Source: an uncultured Clostridia bacterium (lineage in GTDB: Bacteria; Bacillota; Clostridia; Christensenellales; Borkfalkiaceae). From it: DNA of 64,000 nucleotides. The stretch lies in assembly GCA_934249265.1 (NCBI GenBank), contig CAKQKQ010000001.1:15614-79613 (forward strand). Reading direction: 5' to 3'. Of the stretch, positions 4,797 through 53,193 are shown in pieces (positions within the stretch are counted from its first letter, which is position 1; every line of letters starts with the position of its first letter). The position numbers were made by a program, and so were the translations under genes. The notes under the pieces were generated by a model. The model worked only from the letters and a program-made list of their open reading frames with translations. It did not search any database and was not told the DNA's origin.

Positions 4797-5016
4797 ACCG
4801 TCATTATAACAAAACCTAATGATAATTGCAAACGTAAACACCCTAAAAGATTTTTAAACGGCAAATTTTAATTTAGGAAAATTTTGGAAAGCGGGGAAAT
4901 AAAAAGAAAACGGAGAAATAAAAGCAGACGTTGTGTATAAAGCAAAACGGGGAAAATTTTTATTTAAAGTGAAAAAGGGGGCTAAAATGAAGGCGTTATT
5001 TTCATTGTAAAAAACT

Positions 5017-5268
5017 TACGTATTTCCAACCATATTAGAACAATTTTTGCGCCGTCAAGTCGATTTGTACTGCGTTAAACGATATAGTACGCGTTCAGTC
5101 GTTTGCCTTGTCCAAACAAGCCGCAGCCATATGAAAAAAAGACCGACTTGTATGTTTTGCGGTCAACTTTACGGCGTAAAAACACTACGTGCCATAAAAA
5201 TATGCAGAAAACGATAAAACTGTGCCGTATTTGCGGTTTGTTTTACTAAGGTTTGAAATACGTAAAAA
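5017..5268 (+). repeat. copy A of a 250-bp intergenic repeat (partner at 12441-12704)
   Basis: Aligned by eye to 12441-12704 at roughly 85-90 percent identity with a few small indels. Confidence 0.85.
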
Positions 5269-5319
5269 CGCAAAAAATAAAAACAAATAAAAAAAAGTTG
5301 AGAAAGTGTATAAAATTGT

Positions 5320-5348
5320 TTGACAAAAGCGGAAAAATCGTGTATATT
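5320..5348 (+). promoter_or_regulatory. promoter of the tRNA operon
   Basis: TTGACA (5320-5325), 17-nt spacer ending in TG, TATATT (5343-5348). Lies 28 nt upstream of the first tRNA. Confidence 0.7.
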
Positions 5349-5375
5349 AAGTAAGCATCATAAGATGTTTTCCAC

Positions 5376-5453
<78 letters not shown>

Positions 5454-5476
5454 TTATCCTTTTAAGGATGCAATAT

Positions 5477-5553
5477 GGCGGCGTAGCTTAGTTGGTTATA
5501 GCGGCCGGTTCATACCCGGCAGGTCGTTGGTTCGAATCTGACCGCCGCTACCA
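5477..5553 (+). tRNA. tRNA-Met(CAT), elongator type
   Basis: GGCGGCGTAGCT...CGGTTCATACCCG...CGCCGCTACCA. The cloverleaf folds by eye and resembles Firmicutes elongator tRNA-Met rather than tRNA-Ile2. Confidence 0.8.
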
Positions 5554-5607
5554 GATGATAACAACTGCTCTTTTTTTTAAAGCGCATTGCGATATACAAC
5601 TGAATAA

Positions 5608-5682
5608 GGCCCCTTGGTCAAGCGGTTAAGACATCGCCCTTTCACGGCGGTATCATGGGTTCGAATCCCGTAGGGGTCACCA
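5608..5682 (+). tRNA. tRNA-Glu(TTC)
   Basis: GGCCCCTTGGTCAAGCGGTTAAGACA, anticodon loop CTTTCAC, GGTTCGAATCC T-arm, CCA end. Confidence 0.9.
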
Positions 5683-5686
5683 AGGA

Positions 5687-5720
5687 AACAGTCGACACAC
5701 GTGTCGACTGTTTTGTTTTT
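5687..5720 (+). terminator. terminator of the tRNA operon
   Basis: ACAGTCGACAC/GTGTCGACTGT stem followed by TTTTGTTTTT. Confidence 0.85.
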
Positions 5721-5844
5721 ATAAATTTAAGGGATTCGAATATGGAGCAACTCGCTTTGCGAATGTTTTGCAAAGCAAAGAAAAAGCATAGTGTGCTTTT
5801 CAGCAGATAGAGAGCACAAACGGAAATCTTGTAAGGGTATCAAA

Positions 5845-5896
5845 CATAATAAAAGCGAAACCGTTTCCATTAGGAGATGGTTTCGCTTTTATTATG
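5845..5896. other. perfect 18-bp stem-loop
   Basis: CATAATAAAAGCGAAACC (5845-5862) pairs with GGTTTCGCTTTTATTATG (5879-5896) around a 16-nt loop. Confidence 0.7.
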
Positions 5897-5919
5897 TACT
5901 TTATAAAGACTTATTAAAC

Positions 5920-5964
5920 AAAAAACGGCGTGTGAGATAAACTCTCGCACGCCGCTTTTGCTTT
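5920..5964 (-). terminator. bidirectional terminator downstream of the 71-aa gene
   Basis: CGGCGTGTGAG/CTCGCACGCCG stem (one G-U pair), flanked by A6 on the left and CTTTTGCTTT on the right. Confidence 0.65.
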
Positions 5965-6059
5965 GTATCTACATTTTTTTATACGGTATTATCTTTGGAC
6001 AAGCGTGGATAAAATTCGAGCCTATTTGTATTAAGATGAGTATTCCAGTAGTATTAAAA

Positions 6060-6275
6060 TTAAATTTTAATATAATCAAAAATATATTTTAAACAAGTCT
6101 TTCCGACGCAACATTGTGTTCCGTTTTTTATATTCATAAACTTATAGCAATAATCAATAGGTTGACCGCAAACGCAAAAGCCATAAAGTGTTTTACCTAT
6201 ATATTTCACGTCTCGAACAGAGTCTGCTTTTAATGCAGTTAAAAATTTTATAATTGTTTCGTCTTCGCTTTTCAT
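6060..6275 (-). CDS. small cysteine-rich protein, unknown function (71 aa)
   Basis: AGGAGG RBS. Eight Cys arranged CVCG...C...CC...C suggest metal binding. No family recognised. Confidence 0.6.
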   Translation of the reverse strand: MKSEDETIIKFLTALKADSVRDVKYIGKTLYGFCVCGQPIDYCYKFMNIKNGTQCCVGKTCLKYIFDYIKI

Positions 6276-6529
6276 AAGAACCTCCTAAAGTCTTTATTTA
6301 TAAAGTATACTCTTTTTTTAAATTTGTTACCTTAATAAAATAACAAATCGGTTTACTTTTTAATATATCTTATCGATCAACTTAAAAATGAAGTGATTTA
6401 ATGTAAGGCAAAATAATTGGGTTTAATTTGTGCAAAATTTTTTATTGTGAGTAAATACTTTAAATTGCGCGTATATAAAATCGTTAAACGGGAAAAATAT
6501 CTCTGTAATAAAATTAAAGGAGATTTTTT

Positions 6530-7783
6530 ATGAACAAAGTTAATCCGTTTTACGAAAAAAACGCCGTTCCCGTCAACGGGTTTGTGTCGGTTGCCGATTA
6601 CAGCCCCGTTCCGTACAACAAAAACACCGCTTCGCCGTATACTAAAACCAGAATTATTCTTTTAAACGGCGCGGAGTTCGAGGCAAATTGGTTTTTGCAT
6701 CAATTCAGCAGAAACTGCAACAACAACGATTTAAGGCGCGATATCGCCTTGATAAGAAGGCACGAGCAGCACCAACAAAAAATTATTTCGGGCTTAAAAC
6801 CCGTTGACGAAACCGACCTCGAAACCACGATCGGTTACGAACAACTCGCCATCGATTTGACGGCGATACTTGCAAAACACGTAAAGGACGATTACGTCAA
6901 AGACGCCCTTAATTTCGCTTTGCTTGAAGATTTCGACCATTTATACAGATTTGCCAACTTGTTGGAGACCGAACAAGGCATAAACGCCAACGATTTGACG
7001 GGCGGTTACACCGAAATAACCCCCGGTCGACCCACCGTGGCAGAACCCAGACACCCGTATGACGAAATAAACAGACACATTGCCGGTGAAATTGCCGACC
7101 CGTTTACAAAATTGGTCGTATCGATAATCACCGCGGGCGAACAGCAAACGATGAATTATTATATGAACATTGCGGGTTTCCACCCCAGCGAGATAGGTCG
7201 AAAGTTATATTCGGAAATAGCGATGATAGAAGAACAGCACGTTACCGAATACGGAAGTTTGATGGACACGACTTGCTCGTGGCTTGAAAATTGGTTGATG
7301 CACGAATACACCGAGTGTTATTTATATTATTCTTGTTTTGAAGACGAAACGGACGAGTATATAAAAGATTTGTTTTATAAGCATTATTTGCAGGAGTGCG
7401 GGCATTTGCAATACGTCGCAAACTTGCTTTTGAAATACGAGGGCAAACCTTGGCAGTCGGTTTATCCTTGCGGCGGCGATTTCCCCGAATTGTTGCATTT
7501 TGAAAGCAATATCGATTATATCAGAGGCGTGCTTGCAAAAACCATAAACTACACGAGAGCCAACGAAGATTACGCATTATTAAAAGACTTAAAAGATAAC
7601 GCAAATTATTTCAAATATCAAAAACAAAACGTGAAAAAGCCCGAAAGTTTGCCGAGTCATAAAGTGATAGAGCAGCATATCAAAAAATTCGGAACGGATT
7701 ATAGATTCGAGACGAAGAAAAACCCCGTGCCCGAATTGCAAAACAGAAAGTGCGACAACACAAATGTCGCGAGAAAGAAATGA
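6530..7783 (+). CDS. hypothetical protein, possibly ferritin-like diiron-carboxylate fold
   Basis: RBS AAAGGAGA. Helical protein with IEEQH, RRHEQH and LEDFDH motifs reminiscent of E-x-x-H metal ligands. Assignment is tentative. Confidence 0.75.
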   Translation: MNKVNPFYEKNAVPVNGFVSVADYSPVPYNKNTASPYTKTRIILLNGAEFEANWFLHQFSRNCNNNDLRRDIALIRRHEQHQQKIISGLKPVDETDLETTIGYEQLAIDLTAILAKHVKDDYVKDALNFALLEDFDHLYRFANLLETEQGINANDLTGGYTEITPGRPTVAEPRHPYDEINRHIAGEIADPFTKLVVSIITAGEQQTMNYYMNIAGFHPSEIGRKLYSEIAMIEEQHVTEYGSLMDTTCSWLENWLMHEYTECYLYYSCFEDETDEYIKDLFYKHYLQECGHLQYVANLLLKYEGKPWQSVYPCGGDFPELLHFESNIDYIRGVLAKTINYTRANEDYALLKDLKDNANYFKYQKQNVKKPESLPSHKVIEQHIKKFGTDYRFETKKNPVPELQNRKCDNTNVARKK

Positions 7784-7944
7784 CGATTAAAAATTTTATT
7801 TTATAACTTAAAACAATTATATAAACCAATCGATAGAAATTTATAATTTAAAAAAGAAGAGGCACAGCGATAAAAAATATCGCTGTGCCTTGATTTGTTT
7901 TTTATGATAATCGCGCAAAATTCGATTAAACGTTTTTTATACGG

Positions 7945-10281
7945 CTAAACCCAAAGTGTAATTTTGCCGTTTACGTAATGCCAATAGTTTTTGCCGTCTG
8001 CGGGCACGTCTGATGCGTTTTCAATATAAAAGTAAACGGTTGTGCCTTCGGAAAGCGTAAAACCGTCTGGGGTATTGTTTTTCCATTCGCTTTCTGTGCC
8101 GGCAAAATAAATCGATTCAAGTTGTAAGTTTTTACAATCAAATATTTTATTTACGCTCGACGCCAAAGAAACGGGCAATACCATTTTTTTCAAGTTTTCG
8201 CAAAGGGAAAAACAACCTGATCCGATTGTCGTCAAAGTCGACGGCAGTTTAATTTCCGTTAAAGAAGTGCACCACATAAACGCATTGTCTTCTATTTCGA
8301 GTAACCCTTCGGGTAAAACGACGTCGGTTAAATTAATGCAATAATAAAACAAATTCTGAGGAAGTTTTGTAATTCCCGCCGCAAACGTGACGGTTTTTAA
8401 AGATTCGCAATAACAGAAGACGGCTTTTCCGAGCGTTACGCCGCCCGGTATGGCAATTTCGGTAATCGATTTACACGAATTAAACGCGTTATCGTTAATT
8501 TTTTCAAGAGACGACGGCAACTGTACCGTTGTCAGATTTATACAGTCTTTAAATGCTCTTTCTTTTATTTCTTTTATCCCTTCGTGCAGTTCGACGGATT
8601 TTAATGAGCCGCAATTTAAGAAGGTGTATTCGGTTACGTTGCCGCCTAAAATTGACGCCGTTTCCAATGCCGCACAATCTTTAAAACATTTTTTTCCCAC
8701 AAGTGCGCCGTCGGGAATAACTATGTTTTTTAAAGAGGAGCATTCGCTGAATGCGGTTTCATATATTTTTACTCCGTCCGACAATTTGACGTTTGTCAGA
8801 TTAGAACAGTTTCCGAATGCGTTTTTATCGATGATTACACCTTCGGGTATTTCTATATCTTTTAAACTGTCGCAACGAGAAAAAGAGGAATTGCCGATTT
8901 TTTTCATGGTGGACGGCAATTTTACTTCTGTTAAGTTTGTGCAGCAATAAAATGCTTGTTCGGCGATTTCGGTATATCCTTCCGGAATAACAATGCTTTT
9001 AAGTCCGCACATATAAAATCCGCTGATTATTTCAAGAGATAAAGGCAGGTCTATGCTTGTCAGTGCAGAGCACCCATTGAAAGCCGTGTTGTGTATTGTT
9101 GTCAAACCCTCGGGCAATGTTACGTTTTTTAATGCCGTGCAATTGTAAAATGATCGAGAAGTAATATTTTTAAGGTCTCCCGGCAAAATTACGGTTTCAA
9201 GCGTGTCGCATTCGGCAAATACGCATGTGCCCAAAGTTACGTGCTCGGGTATTGTAATGTAAACGAGTTTTGTTCCTTTAAACGCTCCGCCGGCAATATG
9301 TTGAATATTATAAGGAACGTTTACCATGCCGCCGTTAGGGCAACCGTTGTATCCGCAAACAAACTTATCGTTTACTACAACAAGTCCGTCGGGTTGAGCC
9401 GCAAGCCAGGCGGTGCCGTATACGACGTTATTGCCGAATGATTCAATTTTTTCGGGCCACTGTATTTCCGAAAGGGAAGTACAGCCATAAAACAAATATC
9501 CCTCGATTTGAGTAATTCCGTCCGGAATGGAGATTTTTTCTAAAGATTCACAATTGTAAAAAACAGAGGCGCCTATTGACCGGAGTTGTTTTGGTAAGTT
9601 TACTTTTTTTAGGGCATTGTTGAATTTAAAAGCACTGTTTCCGATTTTTTTAACTCCATCCGGTATATTAATTTCGGTAAGTTTTTTAAAGGAGACAAAT
9701 GCGCTGGATCCAATTTCTTCAAGAGTTTCCGGGAATTGTATACCGGTCGTTTTATCGTTAATGGCGGGACCGAAAAGGGTAATAATCGAAAATCCTTCTT
9801 CGGCTATTTTTTTTACGGGGAGTCCCCTATAGTAATCGGGGATTATTATTTTGCCCGTAAGGTCAGCCGTTCCTTTAGATACTTCATATCCGCTTTCGTC
9901 TTCAAGCAACGTATATTTAAGGTTTGGCGTGGGGATAGCCGGCGGCTCGGGTTCGTCTATATCTATAGTGTAAGTATATTTTGTCGTTTCAGAATTGCAA
10001 AAACGTTTGCCGTCGCCTGTGGCAGATACGTTTATTTCATAAGAGCCTTCTTCGGTTATAAATGAAACGTTGAATCGATTTTTGTTTATTTTGTATTCCG
10101 CATCGTTAAAATATACTATATATCCCGTGGCGTTTTCAACCGCATCCCAGATAAGTTCGTCATTTTCTATATGTAAGTTGCTTGGCGCAGGCAATTGTTG
10201 CGGTTTCTCTTTCGAGCATGCCGCAAGCACGCACCCCGCCGCTACAACCAATAACAAAACGTATAGTTTTAAATTTTTCAT
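7945..10281 (-). CDS. BspA-type leucine-rich-repeat surface lipoprotein
   Basis: Lipobox VLAAC. More than 20 repeats of about 23 aa of the form IP-x-GV-x-x-IG-x-x-AF-x-x-C-x-x-L. Confidence 0.85.
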   Translation of the reverse strand: MKNLKLYVLLLVVAAGCVLAACSKEKPQQLPAPSNLHIENDELIWDAVENATGYIVYFNDAEYKINKNRFNVSFITEEGSYEINVSATGDGKRFCNSETTKYTYTIDIDEPEPPAIPTPNLKYTLLEDESGYEVSKGTADLTGKIIIPDYYRGLPVKKIAEEGFSIITLFGPAINDKTTGIQFPETLEEIGSSAFVSFKKLTEINIPDGVKKIGNSAFKFNNALKKVNLPKQLRSIGASVFYNCESLEKISIPDGITQIEGYLFYGCTSLSEIQWPEKIESFGNNVVYGTAWLAAQPDGLVVVNDKFVCGYNGCPNGGMVNVPYNIQHIAGGAFKGTKLVYITIPEHVTLGTCVFAECDTLETVILPGDLKNITSRSFYNCTALKNVTLPEGLTTIHNTAFNGCSALTSIDLPLSLEIISGFYMCGLKSIVIPEGYTEIAEQAFYCCTNLTEVKLPSTMKKIGNSSFSRCDSLKDIEIPEGVIIDKNAFGNCSNLTNVKLSDGVKIYETAFSECSSLKNIVIPDGALVGKKCFKDCAALETASILGGNVTEYTFLNCGSLKSVELHEGIKEIKERAFKDCINLTTVQLPSSLEKINDNAFNSCKSITEIAIPGGVTLGKAVFCYCESLKTVTFAAGITKLPQNLFYYCINLTDVVLPEGLLEIEDNAFMWCTSLTEIKLPSTLTTIGSGCFSLCENLKKMVLPVSLASSVNKIFDCKNLQLESIYFAGTESEWKNNTPDGFTLSEGTTVYFYIENASDVPADGKNYWHYVNGKITLWV

Positions 10282-10305: not shown

Positions 10306-11676
10306 TTAACCTAAAAGGAAGTCTAAATAGTCTAAAAACATTTCGTTTAATACTTCCTTATCGTATTCGGTACAGTCGGCATCTTCCTGACAGTTTTCGC
10401 TGTTAATTTCTTGCAATTGATCTTCTAATATAATTTCAAGTCCGCCGGGTGCCGTAATGAGTGGGTCGACAACCCAAATATATGGTTTTTCCGATACTGA
10501 CGGATAATCATTTGGAAAATCGTTTACTTCTGTCTGAATGGAAGAAAGAAGAGAGTAAAACTCGCTCTTTAATTGCCAAATTCCCATCGAATAAACAGAA
10601 CGACCATTGGGGTCAAATTCGTCAAAAACGTCCGAACACGTTGAAAAATTATATAAATTTGCGCTTAAATTATTTGTTAAATCGCCGAGTATATCGACGT
10701 AAAGCGTGCCACCTACGTGTGCAAGAATATTGATGTTTCTGCCGTTTAATTCGTTGACGATGTCGTTATAATACAAACCTATTTTATTTTTGCGCCCTGA
10801 GGTAAAGGTTGAATTTGTGTCGAGTTGGAAGTTGTTTATGTATTCGTATCCGTTGGTGTAAAGATCTTTCCAGAAATCGATATAATCCGAAATCTTTGTG
10901 CTGTCGTGAAAATAGTTGTAATCAGAGCGATTATCACTACCTAAAATATCTTGAGATAAATCCCATATCCCTTCATACATATCTTTTTCAAAATCTTTTT
11001 CTGCAGCGGTGTTGCAATTGTAAAACATGTAAAGCAACAATCTGCGCAACGTTGACGACGCTGCGCAAAGTTCTGCAATATTGTATGATTCAGGCACTCC
11101 GTCTATTCCTATAAATCTTCCGTCAATCAATATCGTGGTATTTTCAAGTATACCGTTTGCACTTAGCATTGTTTTTATGGTATTTTTAAGAAATCTGCTG
11201 TATTTATCCATATCGCAAGGCATAGATGCGTCTGCAAAAGATAAATCGCCGAATTCGGGTTGATAAGGAGATATAAACATTACTTTACACCCTTGTAATT
11301 TTAGACATTCAAACAAATTTTCCAAAACCACAGGGTCGGGTTTAATCGTTTTTATCTCTATAATTACTATATTCATATTATATTGATTAAATCCCCAAAA
11401 ATATCCGGAATAAAGCATATATGTAAGTTCTTGAGGGGTCAACAAGTATTGAATATCATACGTGACGTTTAATCCGATATAAGAATCGAAAATTTCGCCG
11501 AAAGCAGGAGCGGAATCGCTGAAATAATAAATATTGGTCATGGGTGTGTTTGTCTTTGTGTAATCCGCAGAAAGTGCGTTTACTTTTTTCGTTGCTCCGC
11601 CGGCAGAACCAAAGCCTGTTAAAACAACCATAACAGTTGCGATAATAACAATTAAAAAGTTTTTTGTTGTTTTCAT
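10306..11676 (-). CDS. secreted or membrane-anchored protein of unknown function
   Basis: AGGAGG RBS and an N-terminal hydrophobic segment. Lies 25 nt upstream of the LRR lipoprotein gene, so probably co-transcribed. Confidence 0.75.
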   Translation of the reverse strand: MKTTKNFLIVIIATVMVVLTGFGSAGGATKKVNALSADYTKTNTPMTNIYYFSDSAPAFGEIFDSYIGLNVTYDIQYLLTPQELTYMLYSGYFWGFNQYNMNIVIIEIKTIKPDPVVLENLFECLKLQGCKVMFISPYQPEFGDLSFADASMPCDMDKYSRFLKNTIKTMLSANGILENTTILIDGRFIGIDGVPESYNIAELCAASSTLRRLLLYMFYNCNTAAEKDFEKDMYEGIWDLSQDILGSDNRSDYNYFHDSTKISDYIDFWKDLYTNGYEYINNFQLDTNSTFTSGRKNKIGLYYNDIVNELNGRNINILAHVGGTLYVDILGDLTNNLSANLYNFSTCSDVFDEFDPNGRSVYSMGIWQLKSEFYSLLSSIQTEVNDFPNDYPSVSEKPYIWVVDPLITAPGGLEIILEDQLQEINSENCQEDADCTEYDKEVLNEMFLDYLDFLLG

Positions 11677-11977: not shown

Positions 11978-12024
11978 TTTACTCGATACGTATGCGGTAA
12001 AAACGGCAATACTTACAAAAAAAT
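11978..12024 (+). repeat. dyad-motif repeat, copy a
   Basis: TTTACTCGATACGTATGCGGTAAAAACGGCAATACTTACAAAAAAATA. Same family as 15080-15142 and 16062-16124. Confidence 0.8.
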
Positions 12025-12440
12025 AACGCAAGATTTATAAATACGGCTAAAAATAAGGGCGTTTTATTTTTGTGGTTAAAAATTTAAAAGCGTTTTTGCG
12101 CTCGCTATTTTTCGCGCTTTCGTTTTTTTGCGTTCACTCATTAACTCGTGTTTTTGTGTGTTCGCTTTTTTTGTTTTTACATTCACTCATTTATCTGTGT
12201 TTATTATTTTATGTCCGCATACTTACTCGTGTTTTATTTTTCACTATTTTATTTTTACTCGCAATTTTAATAAAAGGCAAATCGCACTTCCAAGGTTTTT
12301 GTTTGTTTTTTATTGTTATAAATCGATTAATCACAATTTAAAAAGGGGGCGGCAAATTTTAATTTGCTATTGCAAAAGTGAGTAAACGGTGTTATAATAA
12401 AAAATAATTAAGGGTTAAACGGAAATTAATTCGTTTAGCG

Positions 12441-12704
12441 TACGTATTACCAATCCCATTAGAACAATTTTTGCGCCGTCAAGTCGATTTGTACCGCGTT
12501 AAACGACTTTCAAGTACGTATAGTACGTGTTCAGTCGTTTGCCTTGTTCAAACAAGCCGCAGCCATATGCAAAACAAGACCGACTTGTATATTTTGCGGT
12601 CGATTTTACGGCGTAAAAACACTACGTGCCGCAAGAATATACTTTAAAACGATAAAACTGTGCCGTATTTGCGGTTTGTTCTACCAAGGTTTGAAATACG
12701 TAAG
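12441..12704 (+). repeat. copy B of the 250-bp intergenic repeat
   Basis: Aligns with 5017-5268 and ends at the RBS of the following LRR gene. Confidence 0.85.
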
Positions 12705-12715
12705 GGAGGGAAAAT

Positions 12716-14653
12716 ATGAAATCGGGTGATTTATTAAACAGTCAATCAAACGAAAACAACCGAGAGCAAAACGATAATCAAGCAACCGAAGAAATGCAAA
12801 CCGCCGAAAAGAGAGAAAAGTCGAGCGAAACAAAAAGCGATTACATAAAAAAAGAAAATTGCTTTGTTTCTAAAGACGCCAAAGAAAAGCAGCCGCCCAC
12901 GCAAACGCAACGCAAAAGAAAAAAATTGACAATAATAATCGCGTGCATTGCGGTCGTTTTAATCGTGGCGATTACGACGATTTCGGTTTATGACGCAAGG
13001 CACATAAGCAAAGCGGAGTATTGCGGGCGTAAAGATTTAATATCGTTCACTATTCCCGACGGGGTGAAATACATAAGCGAAAGTGCGTTTGAAAACTGCA
13101 CAAACCTCACAAACGTAAAAATTCCAGACAGCGTTGAAAAAATCGGCGCGGGTGCGTTTAGGCATTGTACGAATCTCAGAACGATTAAAATTCCTAATAG
13201 TGTGAAAATTATAGATGAGTATGCTTTTGCCGGGTGTTATAATCTCAAAAAATTGACCATACCCGACAGCGTAACCTATATAGGGGATTCTGCATTTGCG
13301 GGTTGTCGCAGTCTTACTACGGTAAAAATAGGTAAAGGACTTAAAGAAATCGGCGAAGACGCGTTTGAATATTGCTCGAATATAAAAAGTATTTATTATG
13401 CAGATATGGAAACGCTGTGTAATATAAAGGGGTTAAATAGTTTAAACGATGCAGATGATAGGCGGATATATATTAGCGGAAATCTTTTTACCGACTTTAT
13501 TTTTGTCGGAAACATAGAAAACGTACCCGATAATGCTTTTTACCATTGCGAAAATATTATATCGTTTACAATGCGCGGTGGCAAAAAAATCGGCGAAAGG
13601 GCTTTTAAGAATTGTAATTCGCTCGAACGGGTAACTATAGAAAACGTTGAATGTATAGGCAAAAGCGCGTTTGAGTTTTGCAGAAATATCACTTCGTTGA
13701 CTATAGGCGAAGGCGTGAAAAGCATTGAAGACTACGCCTTTAGCGAGTGTAACAAACTCGAAGAAGTCGTTATTCCCGAAAGCGTGCAAGAAATAGGGTC
13801 GATGGCGTTTTACGGCTGTGGCAACCTTAAAAAGATAACGATAAAAAACAGTAAAATAAAAATAAATAAAGACGCGTTCGGGAACTGTAAAATAGAAACC
13901 GCCGACGTGCCCGCGGAAGTTATAGAAAGCGTAGAAAACCCGACGTTGCAAATTTTAAATATAATCGGCGGAGAGGTCATTCCCGACAACGCGCTTTACG
14001 GAAGTAAATCAATTACAAAAGTCACCATTTCAAGCAGTGTGAAAAATATAGGGAAATACGTTTTTATGTATTGCGATAATCTCGACACGATTACGGTAGA
14101 TAAAGACAACCCGATTTATTACGCAAAAGGCAATTGCGTTATAGAAAAAGCGACTCAAAAATTGATTTTCGGTTGCCAAGCGAGCGTTATTCCCGCCGAG
14201 GTAAAGTCGATCGGCGATTACGCTTTTTGCGGTTCGGTTGGGCTTACGCAAATAACCCTTCCCGAGGGGCTTGAAAGTATAGGCGAATATGCTTTTTCCG
14301 AGTGTAGAAACTTAAAGAGTTTTACAATTCCGTCAAGTGTGAAAAATATCGGCGATTATGCGTTTAATCGGTGTTTTAAATTGAGTAGTGTTACTCTGCC
14401 CGACGGAATCGAAGAGGTAAGCGAAGGCTTGTTTTACAGTTGTAGCGTGCTTTACGAGGTGTATATTCCGCAGAGCGTAACATCGATAGGCGACAATGCG
14501 TTTAAGTTCTGCGAAACATTGAAGAGCGTCGAATTTAAAGGCACTGCCGAAGAGTGGGACGCAATAACGAAAGGCAACAATTGGAATTTTAAGGTTTCCT
14601 CTAATTTCAAAGTCAATTGTTCGGGTGTTAGTTCGGGCGATGAAAACGCATAA
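12716..14653 (+). CDS. BspA-type leucine-rich-repeat protein with N-terminal TM anchor
   Basis: RBS GGGAGGG. Charged N-terminal region, then TM LTIIIACIAVVLIVAITTISVY, then about 20 LRR units (IPDSV-x-x-IG-x-x-AF-x-x-C). Confidence 0.85.
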   Translation: MKSGDLLNSQSNENNREQNDNQATEEMQTAEKREKSSETKSDYIKKENCFVSKDAKEKQPPTQTQRKRKKLTIIIACIAVVLIVAITTISVYDARHISKAEYCGRKDLISFTIPDGVKYISESAFENCTNLTNVKIPDSVEKIGAGAFRHCTNLRTIKIPNSVKIIDEYAFAGCYNLKKLTIPDSVTYIGDSAFAGCRSLTTVKIGKGLKEIGEDAFEYCSNIKSIYYADMETLCNIKGLNSLNDADDRRIYISGNLFTDFIFVGNIENVPDNAFYHCENIISFTMRGGKKIGERAFKNCNSLERVTIENVECIGKSAFEFCRNITSLTIGEGVKSIEDYAFSECNKLEEVVIPESVQEIGSMAFYGCGNLKKITIKNSKIKINKDAFGNCKIETADVPAEVIESVENPTLQILNIIGGEVIPDNALYGSKSITKVTISSSVKNIGKYVFMYCDNLDTITVDKDNPIYYAKGNCVIEKATQKLIFGCQASVIPAEVKSIGDYAFCGSVGLTQITLPEGLESIGEYAFSECRNLKSFTIPSSVKNIGDYAFNRCFKLSSVTLPDGIEEVSEGLFYSCSVLYEVYIPQSVTSIGDNAFKFCETLKSVEFKGTAEEWDAITKGNNWNFKVSSNFKVNCSGVSSGDENA

Positions 14654-14674
14654 AAGGAAACAATGCTAAAAAAA

Positions 14675-14714
14675 ACAAAACGGCTGCAATTTACCGCGGC
14701 CGTTTTGTTTTTTT
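14675..14714 (+). terminator. bidirectional terminator after the LRR gene
   Basis: ACAAAACGGC/GCCGTTTTGT stem followed by a T-run. Confidence 0.75.
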
Positions 14715-15079
14715 GTATACATAATGTCTGTTTAATGTCTTTTTAATGCGCGTTAATGTCCGAGCCGAAATTGAGTATGTTTTAAAATTTTAAACAAATT
14801 CGCTTGTTATATCGGCTTAAATGTTGTATAGTTTAAAATATAAGAAATTGTAAACTTGCTTGCAAGGGTTTACAATTTCGCATTTTTCAAACAAAGAAGA
14901 GTAAAGTATCAACATTGCGAGCGCGTTAGCGCAAAATTTTGAGATTATTTCAAGATTTACTTCTTATAGTTTATCGTGTCGATTTAAGTTTGCGCGGCGA
15001 TGAAAATTTCGGCTAAAACAAAAAGTTAGCCTTAAATTTTTTATTCTTGATTAAATTACAAAATTAAAGTTTTGCCGTC

Positions 15080-15142
15080 TTTACTCGATACGTATGCGGT
15101 AAAAACGTCAAAAACGGCAAAATTTACAAAAAATATTAAAAT
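15080..15142 (+). repeat. 63-nt direct repeat, left flank of the TIR-like cassette
   Basis: 60/63 identical to 16062-16124. Contains the dyad TTTACTCGATACGTATGCGGTAAA. Confidence 0.9.
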
Positions 15143-15183
15143 TTCAATACAAATAAAACATGCAAACAAAAGAAGAGGGAAAT

Positions 15184-16053
15184 ATGAAAATTTTTATTAT
15201 ACATAAAGGAAAAGATGCCGAAGAGATAAACGAATTGTTGGAAAAGAAGAAAAAAGAGATTTTCGGACTTAATTTTCTTGTTTTGCAAAGCAATTCTAAA
15301 AGTTGGAAGAGGAAAACCAAAAATCTAATTTCTAAATCCGACAAAGTAATATATTTTAGCGGCGATGAGTATAGCGAAAATATCGCATGGGAGATAAACA
15401 CCGTCAAAAAATTAAAAATCCCGCTTTACATAGTGCCGCTTAAAGAGGAGTTCAAAAATAAAGAGTTTTTGTTTAGTGATGACGACGGGTACGGCAAAAA
15501 ACCAAAAGCGACGATATTAAACATAAATGATTTAGATACGGTCTTTATCGAGGATAACGAAAATTTAAAAAAGAAACTTTTTACTTCCGAAATAAAAGAT
15601 AGTAAACTTCTTTTCGAGCAGTATAAATTGCTGCTTGAAACCTCGGAAAGCCTTGTTGAAAGAAGGCAAAAAATCACTTCGACGTATCTTTCGATTTGTA
15701 GTGTTTTAATACCGATAATTACCACCATGCTTACCGTAAGTAATTCGTTGATTAATTTATCTTCGATAGTAATTTCGTGCCTATCGATAATTTTATGTAT
15801 TTGTTGGAAAAACATAATCGTTTCTTACGGTCGCTCAAATCAAGCGAAGTTTGCGATAATGGAACTTATGGAAAACGAGTTGCCCGCAAATATTTTCGGG
15901 TCAGAATGGATAGCGTTGAAGAAAATAGGAAAACAATACGTATCTTTTACAGAGAGAGAAACTTCCACTCCGAAAATTTTTATTATTCTTGACCTTGTTT
16001 TTATTGTTGGGGCAATTATAATATTTGTGTTAAAGCAGTCGGGGTTGTATTAA
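15184..16053 (+). CDS. TIR-like (ThsB/DUF1863-type) domain fused to a C-terminal multi-TM module (289 aa)
   Basis: RBS AGAGGGA before the second ATG. KIFIIHKG strand and SENIAWEINTVKKLKIPLYIVPL signature. C-terminal half has the LFEQYKLLLETSESLVERRQ helix plus three hydrophobic segments. Very AT-rich. Confidence 0.7.
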   Translation: MKIFIIHKGKDAEEINELLEKKKKEIFGLNFLVLQSNSKSWKRKTKNLISKSDKVIYFSGDEYSENIAWEINTVKKLKIPLYIVPLKEEFKNKEFLFSDDDGYGKKPKATILNINDLDTVFIEDNENLKKKLFTSEIKDSKLLFEQYKLLLETSESLVERRQKITSTYLSICSVLIPIITTMLTVSNSLINLSSIVISCLSIILCICWKNIIVSYGRSNQAKFAIMELMENELPANIFGSEWIALKKIGKQYVSFTERETSTPKIFIILDLVFIVGAIIIFVLKQSGLY

Positions 16054-16061
16054 AGGCGTTT

Positions 16062-16124
16062 TTTACTCGACACGTATGCGGTAAAAACGTCAAAAACGGC
16101 AAAATTTATAAAAAATATAAAAAT
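16062..16124 (+). repeat. 63-nt direct repeat, right flank of the TIR-like cassette
   Basis: Partner of 15080-15142. Ends 15 nt before the rbsK start. Confidence 0.9.
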
Positions 16125-17919: not shown

Positions 17920-18274
17920 CGTTGCGGGTGAAGTTTGTGTAAAGGCTTTAAAAACTCCCGCCCGCCGCGCCGCTTTTATTATCTTTTATTATAAAGTTAG
18001 AGAGGTATAAAACGTGTCGCGCCTTTTTGTGTTGTTGTATTGCTTTAGCGTGATTTTTAGTGTAGAGTTTTTACCTTTTTGCACCGCTTTTTCGCGTTGC
18101 ATTTTTACCATTTTCGCTCCGCTTTTTGTGCCAAATTTACCTTTTTACTCCGTCGTATTGTTCTAAATTTTTCGCTTTGTTTTTGCGTTTTTCTACTACT
18201 TTACGTTCATATTTTAACGTGATAAACCGTCGGCTTAAAATCCTACAAAATCAAGCCGTCTAAAAACGCAAAAA

Positions 18275-18308
18275 CCTTGTTTACCGCATACGTATGCGGT
18301 AAACAAGG
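18275..18308 (-). terminator. 34-nt perfect palindrome, terminator of the phosphatase gene
   Basis: CCTTGTTTACCGCATACGTATGCGGTAAACAAGG. On the minus strand it is followed by TTTTTGCGTTTTT. The core is the dyad motif seen at six other sites. Confidence 0.7.
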
Positions 18309-20116: not shown

Positions 20117-21091
20117 ATGGTACACAAAAACAAAGAGATGGTGACGATAAAAGACGTTGCCGATCTCGCCAACGTAACCGCTCAAACCGTATCGCGAGTA
20201 ATGCGCGGCACGGGGTACGTTTCAGAAGAAACGAAAGCAAAAGTTTTGCAAGCGGCGCATCAACTGAATTATATACCGAGTTACGTTGCGAAGGCATTGC
20301 GTAAGGGCATGTCGCAAAGTATTGCGATAGTGTTCGACAGTTTGCGCAACGTGTACTTTTCGGTAATGATAGATTATATAAGGAAATCGATAAAAAACAA
20401 CGGTTATTCGGTGCAGTTGCTGTTTTCAAACGAATCGGTTATCACCGAAGAAACTTACCGCAAGGCAATTTCGCACGGGGCGGTGGGCGTAATCAGTTTC
20501 CTCGAAGGCAAAGAGGGTATAGGCGACGTGGTAAAAAACTTGGGCGTGCCTATGCTTATATTCGGTCGTTCCACTTATGAAGACGGACTGGATTATATCA
20601 CGACCGACGACGTGCAAGGCGGCATGCTTGCGGCAAATAGACTTATAAACGACGGTTGCACTTCGTTTTACTACGTGGTAGAAGGTAGGGGAATGACTTG
20701 CGCTATCGATAGATATAAGGGTTTTAAAGAAGAACTTGAAAAGCACGGATTTAAAGCCGAACTTTTAGACTTAAACGAAGAGGGCGAAAAGTGTTTTGCG
20801 AAAATGTCGCTCAACGACCCCACGCAAGGCATATTCTGTTTCAGCGATAACATCGCTTTCAACGTCGTTAAAAAGATGAAAGGCATACCCGACGCAAACC
20901 GCGCAAAACTCATCGGATACGATAATATTCAGTCGGATATTCCTCTTCCCATCACGCTTACCACAATAGGTGTTGATAAAGAACATCACGCCGATTTTGC
21001 GGTAAAACAAATCATCGAAAAAATCGCCGACCCGCAAATAAAACTTGCAAAACATCAATCGGTAAAACTTTTCGAGGGTGAAACGGCATAA
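20117..21091 (+). CDS. LacI/GalR-family transcriptional regulator
   Basis: N-terminal HTH VTIKDVADLANVTAQTVSRVMRG followed by a periplasmic-binding-protein-like sugar-binding fold. Confidence 0.9.
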   Translation: MVHKNKEMVTIKDVADLANVTAQTVSRVMRGTGYVSEETKAKVLQAAHQLNYIPSYVAKALRKGMSQSIAIVFDSLRNVYFSVMIDYIRKSIKNNGYSVQLLFSNESVITEETYRKAISHGAVGVISFLEGKEGIGDVVKNLGVPMLIFGRSTYEDGLDYITTDDVQGGMLAANRLINDGCTSFYYVVEGRGMTCAIDRYKGFKEELEKHGFKAELLDLNEEGEKCFAKMSLNDPTQGIFCFSDNIAFNVVKKMKGIPDANRAKLIGYDNIQSDIPLPITLTTIGVDKEHHADFAVKQIIEKIADPQIKLAKHQSVKLFEGETA

Positions 21092-21282: not shown

Positions 21283-21316
21283 TTTACTTTACGCCATACG
21301 TATTGCGTAAAAACGG
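21283..21316 (+). repeat. dyad-motif repeat, copy e
   Basis: TTTACGCCATACGTATTGCGTAAAAACGG. Confidence 0.7.
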
Positions 21317-39574: not shown

Positions 39575-39604
39575 TTTTACCGCTTACGTATTGCGTAAAA
39601 ACGG
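39575..39604 (+). repeat. dyad-motif repeat, copy f
   Basis: TTTACCGCTTACGTATTGCGTAAAAACGG. Confidence 0.7.
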
Positions 39605-53157: not shown

Positions 53158-53193
53158 TTTTACACGATACGGTTGCGGTAAAGTTGGTATAAT
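53158..53193 (+). promoter_or_regulatory. dyad-motif copy g overlapping an extended -10 promoter of the M6 protease gene
   Basis: TTTACACGATACGGTTGCGGTAAA followed by TGGTATAAT (53185-53193). Lies 42 nt upstream of the ATG. Confidence 0.55.

Follow-up and report, generated by a model that had tools for sequence, protein, structure and literature searches.

A one-protein fusion of a ThsB-type TIR-like domain and an 8xMP membrane module as a candidate single-chain, Thoeris-like gene of an uncultured Clostridia bacterium

What is the short, AT-rich gene that stands between two 63-nucleotide (nt) direct repeats, just upstream of a sugar kinase gene, in a 64,000-nt stretch of DNA from an uncultured Clostridia bacterium (contig CAKQKQ010000001.1; the whole stretch is called the window below), and how did it come to be there? 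A sequence-only reading had proposed a laterally inserted cassette that encodes a TIR-like domain fused to a SLATT/RipA-like membrane module, and had been unable to place it in a named system. We find that it can be placed: judging from sequence comparison, the gene fits best as a fused, stand-alone counterpart of a recurring Thoeris-like two-gene module, in which a ThsB-type TIR protein is encoded next to a membrane protein of the 8xMP family. We take its product to be a single-chain, Thoeris-like candidate anti-phage protein, acquired laterally and lying in a stretch whose units are gained or lost by recombination at or between copies of a dispersed repeat, and assign a probability of roughly 0.55 to this reading.

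The open reading frame (ORF) at 15184-16053 (+), of 289 amino acids (aa), was confirmed in the sequence. The mechanical ORF list puts its start at 15160 and its end at 16053; since the homologues in our alignment all begin MK[IV]F, and since the motif AGAGGG lies a few nucleotides upstream of the later ATG, the start is at 15184 and the protein has 289 residues, as the sequence-only reading had it. The features of the gene are as follows.

15184-16053, plus strand: coding sequence of the fused TIR-like/8xMP protein, 289 aa (ORF list, homologue alignment, Pfam).
15174-15179, plus strand: ribosome-binding site AGAGGG, 4 nt 5' of the ATG (sequence).
15184-15477, plus strand: ThsB-type TIR-like domain, residues about 1-98, predicted to be cytoplasmic (family profiles, hhalign, AlphaFold2 (AF2)).
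15388-15390, plus strand: codon of Trp69 (sequence).
15391-15393, plus strand: GAG codon of Glu70, the candidate catalytic residue (conservation, alignment with ThsB TIRs).
15613-16017, plus strand: 8xMP module, residues 144-278, PF24838 (Pfam, AF2).
15673-15738, plus strand: predicted transmembrane segment 1 (TM1), residues about 164-185, within the long helix 137-184 (hydropathy).
15748-15804, plus strand: predicted TM2, residues about 189-207, helix 188-230 (hydropathy peak 2.48).
15976-16032, plus strand: predicted TM3, residues about 265-283, helix 261-285 (hydropathy peak 3.25).

The N-terminal part can be read as a TIR-like domain of the ThsB/DUF1863 type, in which Glu70 occupies the catalytic position; this assignment holds at the level of the family. 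In our sample of 97 full-length relatives, to which the family counts below refer, 59 match ThsB_TIR (best value 8.6e-11) and 58 match TIR_2 (best 9e-12), and the family profile matches a solved TIR domain in the PDB (8fz9, E = 1.5e-6). Profile-profile alignment with hhalign gives a probability of 96% to the stand-alone ThsB of a split system and of 93% to a type VII ThsB, with the W-E motif aligned; that type VII ThsB has been reported to produce cyclic ADP-ribose (cADPR) (Yirmiya et al. 2025, 10.64898/2025.12.03.692087). Glu70, which had been singled out together with an S-x-x-x-W-E motif, is borne out as the candidate residue: profile alignments place it opposite the conserved TIR Glu in 8fz9 and in two ThsB proteins, and it is one of six residues that are invariant across the 97 sequences (W41, E70, W208, K222, E230 and E241), while W69 and S64 are nearly invariant in a 10-sequence alignment of the closest homologues. 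The AF2 model of this part contains a beta-alpha-beta core (strands 2-6, 30-33, 54-59 and 81-85; helices 9-25, 41-50 and 65-76) at a predicted local distance difference test score (pLDDT) of ~80.

The C-terminal part matches the Pfam entry PF24838, "Octameric membrane protein family (8xMP)". The score is 92.8 bits, where the cut-off is 30 (E = 2e-26), and the match covers model positions 1-135 of 136. All 97 full-length relatives match the entry too, and this family takes the place of the SLATT/RipA-like module that had been proposed. No SLATT match was obtained for the window protein at E <= 1 or for any of the 97 relatives at E <= 0.01, and the SLATT/RipA identity was rejected. The three hydrophobic segments already seen in the bare sequence are real, and correspond to the predicted TM1, TM2 and TM3 listed above. 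Residues 140-163 and 209-264 abound in Lys and Arg, and the loop 184-191 carries no charge; from this we predict an N-in topology that places the TIR domain in the cytoplasm. Modeled alone, from 33 diverse sequences, residues 136-289 give an AF2 model with a pLDDT of 91.3 and a predicted template modeling score (pTM) of 0.81, in which two long helices reaching ~25 residues below the membrane are followed by two short helices and TM3. The module is thus predicted to begin with a juxtamembrane helix, which is followed by a hairpin of TM1 and TM2, a conserved stretch of ~55 residues in the cytoplasm, and TM3. The most conserved residues (Y147, E155, R160, R161, Q162, W208, Y215, N219, K222, E230, E241 and E259) are charged or aromatic and lie in predicted cytoplasmic parts, and the cytoplasmic segment of 8xMP is the most conserved part of the whole protein. 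Foldseek found no significant structural neighbor of the 8xMP model in the PDB (best E = 0.25), the family profile found no PDB relative by sequence, and a literature search found no published description of 8xMP or PF24838; a search of the window protein against NCBIfam also returned no match. The N-terminal regions of 220-250 residues in five further 8xMP proteins (P0063, P0072, P0089, P0092 and P0137) have no Pfam match, so that 8xMP appears also to be fused to other, uncharacterised domains.

The family is catalogued and widespread. An exhaustive profile search at E <= 1e-3 returned 3,294 representatives (50% identity), and about 100 of the best 150 of these share the full-length TIR-8xMP architecture from end to end. 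The same two parts also occur as separate genes: at one locus (L076), a ThsB_TIR gene (128 aa) runs into the beginning of a gene for 8xMP alone (177 aa), and the pair belongs to a defence island that also holds genes for an Eco57I-type methylase, XhoI, DUF2188 and Schlafen-AlbA; on two plasmids, pIITB6_1 of Synechococcus elongatus and p4 of Novosphingobium, which come from two phyla other than that of the window organism, a 137-aa "TIR domain-containing protein" is directly followed by an 8xMP "hypothetical protein". Carriage on plasmids was seen for the split form and not for the fused form, and searches of GenBank phages and IMG/VR returned no match. Genomic context was compared over six independent lineages. 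In four of these, the window included, the fused gene stands alone in unrelated metabolic neighborhoods. Among the fused relatives, P0009 is preceded, at a distance of 13 nt, by an additional ThsB gene, and P0008 adjoins a cluster in which a caspase-like gene stands between two ThsB genes, as in type IV Thoeris. Split or fused relatives are accompanied, across the loci, by ThsB, caspase-like Thoeris, restriction-modification, HEPN and Schlafen genes. A ThsB_TIR - Peptidase_C14 - ThsB_TIR cluster, similar to type IV (caspase) Thoeris, occupies 7091-9014 of locus L069 (also in L070 and L071), immediately beside a TIR-8xMP homologue on the opposite strand.

How might such a protein act? If Thoeris types II, V and VII are a guide, the TIR domain would sense infection and convert NAD+ into an ADP-ribose-derived signal. 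An 8xMP oligomer would perceive this signal through a charged and conserved collar on its cytoplasmic side (E145-Q-Y-K, E155, R160-R161-Q162, Y215, N219, K222, E230 and E241-W242), and the oligomer would then open or disrupt the membrane, with the infection being aborted as a result. In the fused form, the signal would be both made and perceived in cis, within one complex. Abortive infection by disruption of the membrane would then be the most likely mode of action.

In the main alternative, the roles of the two parts would be reversed, such that 8xMP is an anchor, a sensor or an oligomerisation scaffold, and clustered TIR domains kill the cell by NAD+ depletion. Precedents for this exist in SpbK, TIR-SAVED, SPARTA and the TIR-SLOG effector of type IX Thoeris (type IX effectors are given as "TIR and SLOG" in 10.64898/2025.12.03.692087), the invariance of Glu70 and Trp41 across the fused family implies that catalysis matters, and the separate ThsB gene upstream of P0009 suggests that a fused TIR domain need not generate the signal. 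In the split operons, however, the partner of ThsB is 8xMP alone, which puts it in the usual position of an effector and not of a sensor, and the strong conservation of the 8xMP cytoplasmic segment is what would be expected of a ligand- or gating-responsive module. Because 8xMP by itself partners ThsB in these operons, we consider the reversed arrangement unlikely, and retain 8xMP as the putative effector.

Turning to the origin of the gene, its composition is atypical. The first 110 nt of the coding sequence have a GC content of 27.3%, compared to 48.2% at the start of the downstream pfkB-family kinase gene ("rbsK"), in line with the 27% and ~45% that had been counted by hand or estimated. 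The whole-gene GC of 0.328 is the lowest among the 39 window genes (mean 0.429, sd 0.028, z = -3.6), and the GC at third codon positions (GC3) of 0.376 is the second lowest in the window (z = -2.4), such that the low GC goes beyond what amino-acid bias alone would give. Furthermore, the homologues of the six lineages lie in six different neighborhoods, and across 53 GTDB rbsK loci the gene is shared by the sister species only (L001/L007, with about 91% amino-acid identity). On the basis of the lowest GC of the window, the patchy distribution and the unrelated neighborhoods elsewhere, the gene looks laterally acquired. Conserved cassette ends carried along with the gene were considered and rejected, as the flanks are not shared across lineages.

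The neighboring genes are those that had been named from the sequence, namely a BspA-type leucine-rich repeat (LRR) surface-protein gene of 645 aa upstream (LRR645, 12716-14653) and the PfkB-family sugar kinase gene rbsK downstream, followed by a GDSL lipase gene. The 64-kb window contains no second TIR-like or 8xMP-like ORF, and the TIR-8xMP gene is therefore solo, as had also been claimed. Two further sizeable genes, at 6530-7783 (417 aa) and 10306-11676 (456 aa), have no Pfam match, and the latter has the lowest GC3 of the window (0.354); together with two BspA-LRR genes they make up a low-GC, surface-protein-rich stretch between tilS/hpt and rbsK.

The direct repeats around the gene (15080-15142 and 16062-16124) are as well matched as reported, at 60 of 63 identical positions, and a 47-nt version of the repeat occurs at exactly these two sites in the window, with 0 matches in 100 shuffles. 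They do not form a simple insertion scar, however, but are two homogenised copies of a dispersed motif, which we call R. Its core, TTTACTCGAYACGTATGCGGTAAA, is an imperfect 24-nt palindrome, and at least seven R sites are found in the 64 kb compared to 0.7 expected, with the sites at 21288, 39576 and 53159 being diverged. The sites, and the unit that two of them delimit, are as follows.

15080-15142, plus strand: R copy upstream of the TIR-8xMP gene, consisting of the core (15080-15103) and an A-rich tail (repeat search).
16062-16124, plus strand: R copy 3' of the TIR-8xMP gene and 5' of rbsK (60/63 to the upstream copy).
11978-12001, plus strand: third co-oriented R core, identical, upstream of the LRR645 gene (core scan).
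12002-15079, plus strand: R-to-R unit with the LRR645 gene, absent in the sister species (comparison).
18270-18303, no strand assigned: perfect 34-nt palindrome, a relative of R, referred to as the R-like site 18280 (core scan; fold z = -5.9).
21288-21311, no strand assigned: R-like site upstream of a 1472-aa gene (scan; sister-species comparison).
39576-39599, minus strand: R-like site between convergent genes (scan).
53159-53182, plus strand: R-like site abutting a TGnTATAAT promoter-like element, upstream of a 654-aa gene (scan).

The palindrome at 18270-18303, CCTTGTTTACCGCATACGTATGCGGTAAACAAGG, sits between the convergent GDSL-lipase and Y_phosphatase3 genes and is followed on the minus strand by TTTTTGCGTTTTT; it is related to the R motif and probably serves the phosphatase gene as its terminator. 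As this palindrome alone qualifies, an intrinsic terminator was rejected as an explanation of R. Compared to shuffled sequences, only this site and the copy at 11978 (z = -3.0) fold significantly, and the two copies that flank the TIR-8xMP gene fold no better than shuffles (z = -1.6 and -0.8). There is no Rfam match on R. The motif is lineage-restricted, in that it is missing from about 50 rbsK loci of other Clostridia and hardly occurs in the metagenome collection. At the 21288 site, the sister species has retained the right half and the tail without a change, while the left half has diverged. Because of this pattern, and because the flanking copies do not fold, R appears from its sequence to behave as a protein-recognised element and not as a hairpin. 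Its layout of 12-8-12 is compatible with either the core site of a recombinase or a palindromic operator.

Comparison with the sister species provides insight into which of these it might be. The window reads, from left to right, 456-aa gene (minus strand), R, LRR645, R, TIR-8xMP, R, rbsK, with three co-oriented R copies, whereas the sister species reads 455-aa gene (minus strand), R, TIR-8xMP, R, rbsK. The left flank of the first R in the sister species is identical to that of the 11978 copy in the window, and the 3.1-kb LRR645 unit is thus an indel whose two ends coincide exactly with successive R copies. In addition, a ~200-nt indel between the two species starts right after the tail of the R at 21288 (window 21333; about 14030-14240 in L001). 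Within each genome, the copies around the TIR-8xMP gene resemble each other more than they do their positional orthologues, and the tract over which they are identical is 63 nt long in the window, 44 nt in L007 and 25 nt in L001. As the length of the tract varies, the 63-nt repeat is to be understood as a homogenisation tract around a constant core, and not as a fixed target duplication. A transposon target-site duplication was rejected on the same grounds (63, 44 or 25 nt by genome, with the constant core also found elsewhere). An integron attC site was rejected since R is without RYYYAAC/GTTRRRY, the copies flanking the gene do not fold better than shuffles, and there is no recombinase in the window.

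The presence of R upstream of five genes favors an operator. In this case, R would be bound by a transcription factor, and the TIR-8xMP gene would share its control element with rbsK, whether newly acquired or retained. The near-palindrome is conserved as sequence and not as a hairpin, five of the seven sites lie upstream of genes (LRR645, the TIR gene, rbsK, and the 1472-aa and 654-aa genes), one of them abuts the TGnTATAAT element, the right half and tail are kept at the orthologous site in the sister species, and a LacI-family regulator is encoded at 20117-21091, all of which would fit such a role. Yet the 18280 and 39576 sites lie between convergent genes, a consensus scan found no promoter in the R tails, three indel boundaries between the sister species coincide with R, and the flanking copies are homogenised over genome-specific tract lengths, which points to recombination. 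We therefore treat the operator as a tentative and somewhat doubtful alternative. The three coincident indel boundaries and the homogenisation favor recombination, and the gain or loss of units is best accounted for by recombination at R copies or between them. The stronger proposal, that R is the core, lox/dif-like in layout, of an unrecognised, lineage-specific site-specific recombination system that inserts, excises and shuffles single-gene units upstream of rbsK with the help of a recombinase encoded elsewhere, strikes us as a long shot.

Two side observations concern this region. A sub-threshold Rfam match to the Clostridiales-1 small RNA (sRNA) family at 14822-14952 (+), at 30.9 bits compared to a gathering threshold of 48 (E = 9e-4), overlaps an inverted repeat (14831-14892) downstream of the LRR645 gene, and a 79%-similar, 75-nt copy of it occurs in the sister species (L001 11037-11111), beside an R palindrome. 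Separately, positions 1-2296 of L001 carry two large serine-recombinase genes where the window has an ORF-poor stretch (4841-6434); homology between the two resumes at 6434, making this a second variable spot a few kb upstream.

Lateral acquisition is independently supported at another locus. In a Christensenella metagenome-assembled genome (L005), a homologue with 39% identity lies in a segment of ~1.29 kb that has on either side one copy of a clean duplication, 60 nt long, of the rlmD 3' end (7859-7918 and 9149-9208), and a relative with a 91%-identical RlmD and the same upstream synteny is without the gene. Under the long-shot proposal of an R recombination system, this duplication would suggest that the family is captured time and again by small, non-autonomous integrative units of this kind. 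Flanking direct repeats as a property of the family were nevertheless rejected, as they are found in only two of the six independent contexts. We note that a 98-aa ORF at 8924-9220 of L005 is an artefact, running on into the end of rlmD that has been displaced, and that the region downstream of rlmD is variable among the relatives L077-L080.

A number of points weigh against the reading of the gene as a laterally acquired, Thoeris-like anti-phage gene in an R-delimited unit. Taken alone, the window protein reaches only 17.4 bits with TIR_2 in Pfam, where the cut-off is 28 (E = 0.0066); the TIR-like N-terminus proposed from the sequence holds at the level of the family. The fold comparison suggested at the time gives, for the whole AF2 model, weak and generic flavodoxin-fold matches (all E >= 4e-3), in which N-glycosidases and dehydroquinases rank beside SPARTA TIR and TIR-STING; the fold is flavodoxin-like, and because Foldseek does not decide between TIR and N-glycosidase, the TIR assignment rests on profiles and not on the fold search. 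No defence genes lie beside the TIR-8xMP gene in the window, and a search of PADLOC-DB v2, likewise suggested earlier, leaves the window protein unrecognised, with 0 families at E <= 10. That 8xMP binds a ligand is pure conjecture, and our literature search found no experiment on any 8xMP protein. On the side of the locus, no empty site for the TIR-8xMP gene was found in conspecific contigs, GTDB representatives or metagenomes, so that insertion at R is putative: the conspecific contigs have an identical layout, synteny among the GTDB representatives is confined to the sister species, and a metagenome scan for R returned four stretches with no empty site among them. Thus, of the lateral cassette that had been proposed, the acquisition is likely and an R-delimited variable array is present, but the predicted empty site (the LRR gene, one repeat and rbsK) was not found. 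Homology to the other homologue loci ends at the ORF boundaries, and R therefore does not travel with the gene. Finally, there is no recombinase in the window, where the upstream genes are truA, rplM, rpsI, hpt and tilS.

Some of these points would also fit a non-immune protein, that is, a membrane-associated nucleotide- or NAD-metabolising or signaling protein that serves housekeeping or stress and whose gene owes its low GC to a composition rich in Lys, Ile and Phe. The window neighborhood without defence genes, the four of six fused homologues that are solo among metabolic genes, and the N-glycosidase and dehydroquinase folds returned by Foldseek are in keeping with this. Nevertheless, GC3 is low as well (z = -2.4), the distribution is patchy and non-syntenic, and relatives lie near ThsB, caspase-like Thoeris, restriction-modification, HEPN and Schlafen genes, and we consider a non-immune role highly improbable. 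Taking all of this into account, we continue to regard the single-chain anti-phage protein as the better description.

If so, the locus matters in several respects. TIR-based signaling immunity (Thoeris) is expanding fast, and recent surveys excluded stand-alone TIR proteins; here, a ThsB-type TIR and a dedicated 8xMP module come in two forms, a two-gene operon and a common fusion within one protein, extending candidate TIR immunity to uncultured gut Clostridia. The fusion is a compact case in which to ask whether a TIR-made signal can act in cis on a covalently attached pore, and provides a route to the role of the uncharacterised 8xMP module. The R-bounded one-gene units, in turn, are a tractable lead on the gain and loss of small accessory genes in these genomes; were R indeed a recombination site, they would amount to an integron-like array of defence-like and surface LRR genes in Christensenellales-like gut bacteria.

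With respect to known systems, the R-bounded units are like integron attC, dif/pdif and lox-like 13-8-13 arrays in that co-oriented one-gene units lie between imperfect palindromes, and in that one unit is present or absent exactly from R to R between sister species. They differ in that R lacks the integron core sites, that no integrase or Xer-like gene is found in the window, that the flanking copies do not fold, and that R also occurs at non-cassette positions and is not carried with the gene. As for the protein, SpbK and the single-protein TIR systems of E. coli are one-gene TIR systems like the window gene, although SpbK is without a membrane module. The E. coli TIR-V/VI/IX and TIR + TM systems are described as one-gene systems that require the catalytic Glu and act by abortive infection (PMC11350192). 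The SLATT effectors of CBASS and type VII Thoeris are alike in combining a small alpha-helical membrane module, which putatively oligomerises and breaches the membrane, with a nucleotide-signaling domain that is fused to it or encoded as its partner, a resemblance of function and not of family membership. The Pfam entry PF24838 itself names the membrane module only.

The closest comparison is with Thoeris itself. Types with the multi-TM effectors DUF2270/ThsF and SLATT/ThsH have been validated (Yirmiya et al. 2025, 10.64898/2025.12.03.692087), in a survey from which stand-alone TIR proteins were discarded (10.64898/2025.12.03.692087) and which also lists an untested, predicted "3TM" effector class. 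In Thoeris, ThsB and the effector are separate genes of an operon, whereas the window gene encodes one polypeptide and has no partner gene, and its membrane module is PF24838 and not Macro-TM, DUF2270 or SLATT, none of which is matched by any of the 97 relatives. What it shares with types II (Macro-TM), V (DUF2270/ThsF) and VII (SLATT/ThsH) and with the "3TM" class is, first, a ThsB-type TIR, and second, with their membrane effectors, a small multi-TM partner with a conserved, charged cytoplasmic part.

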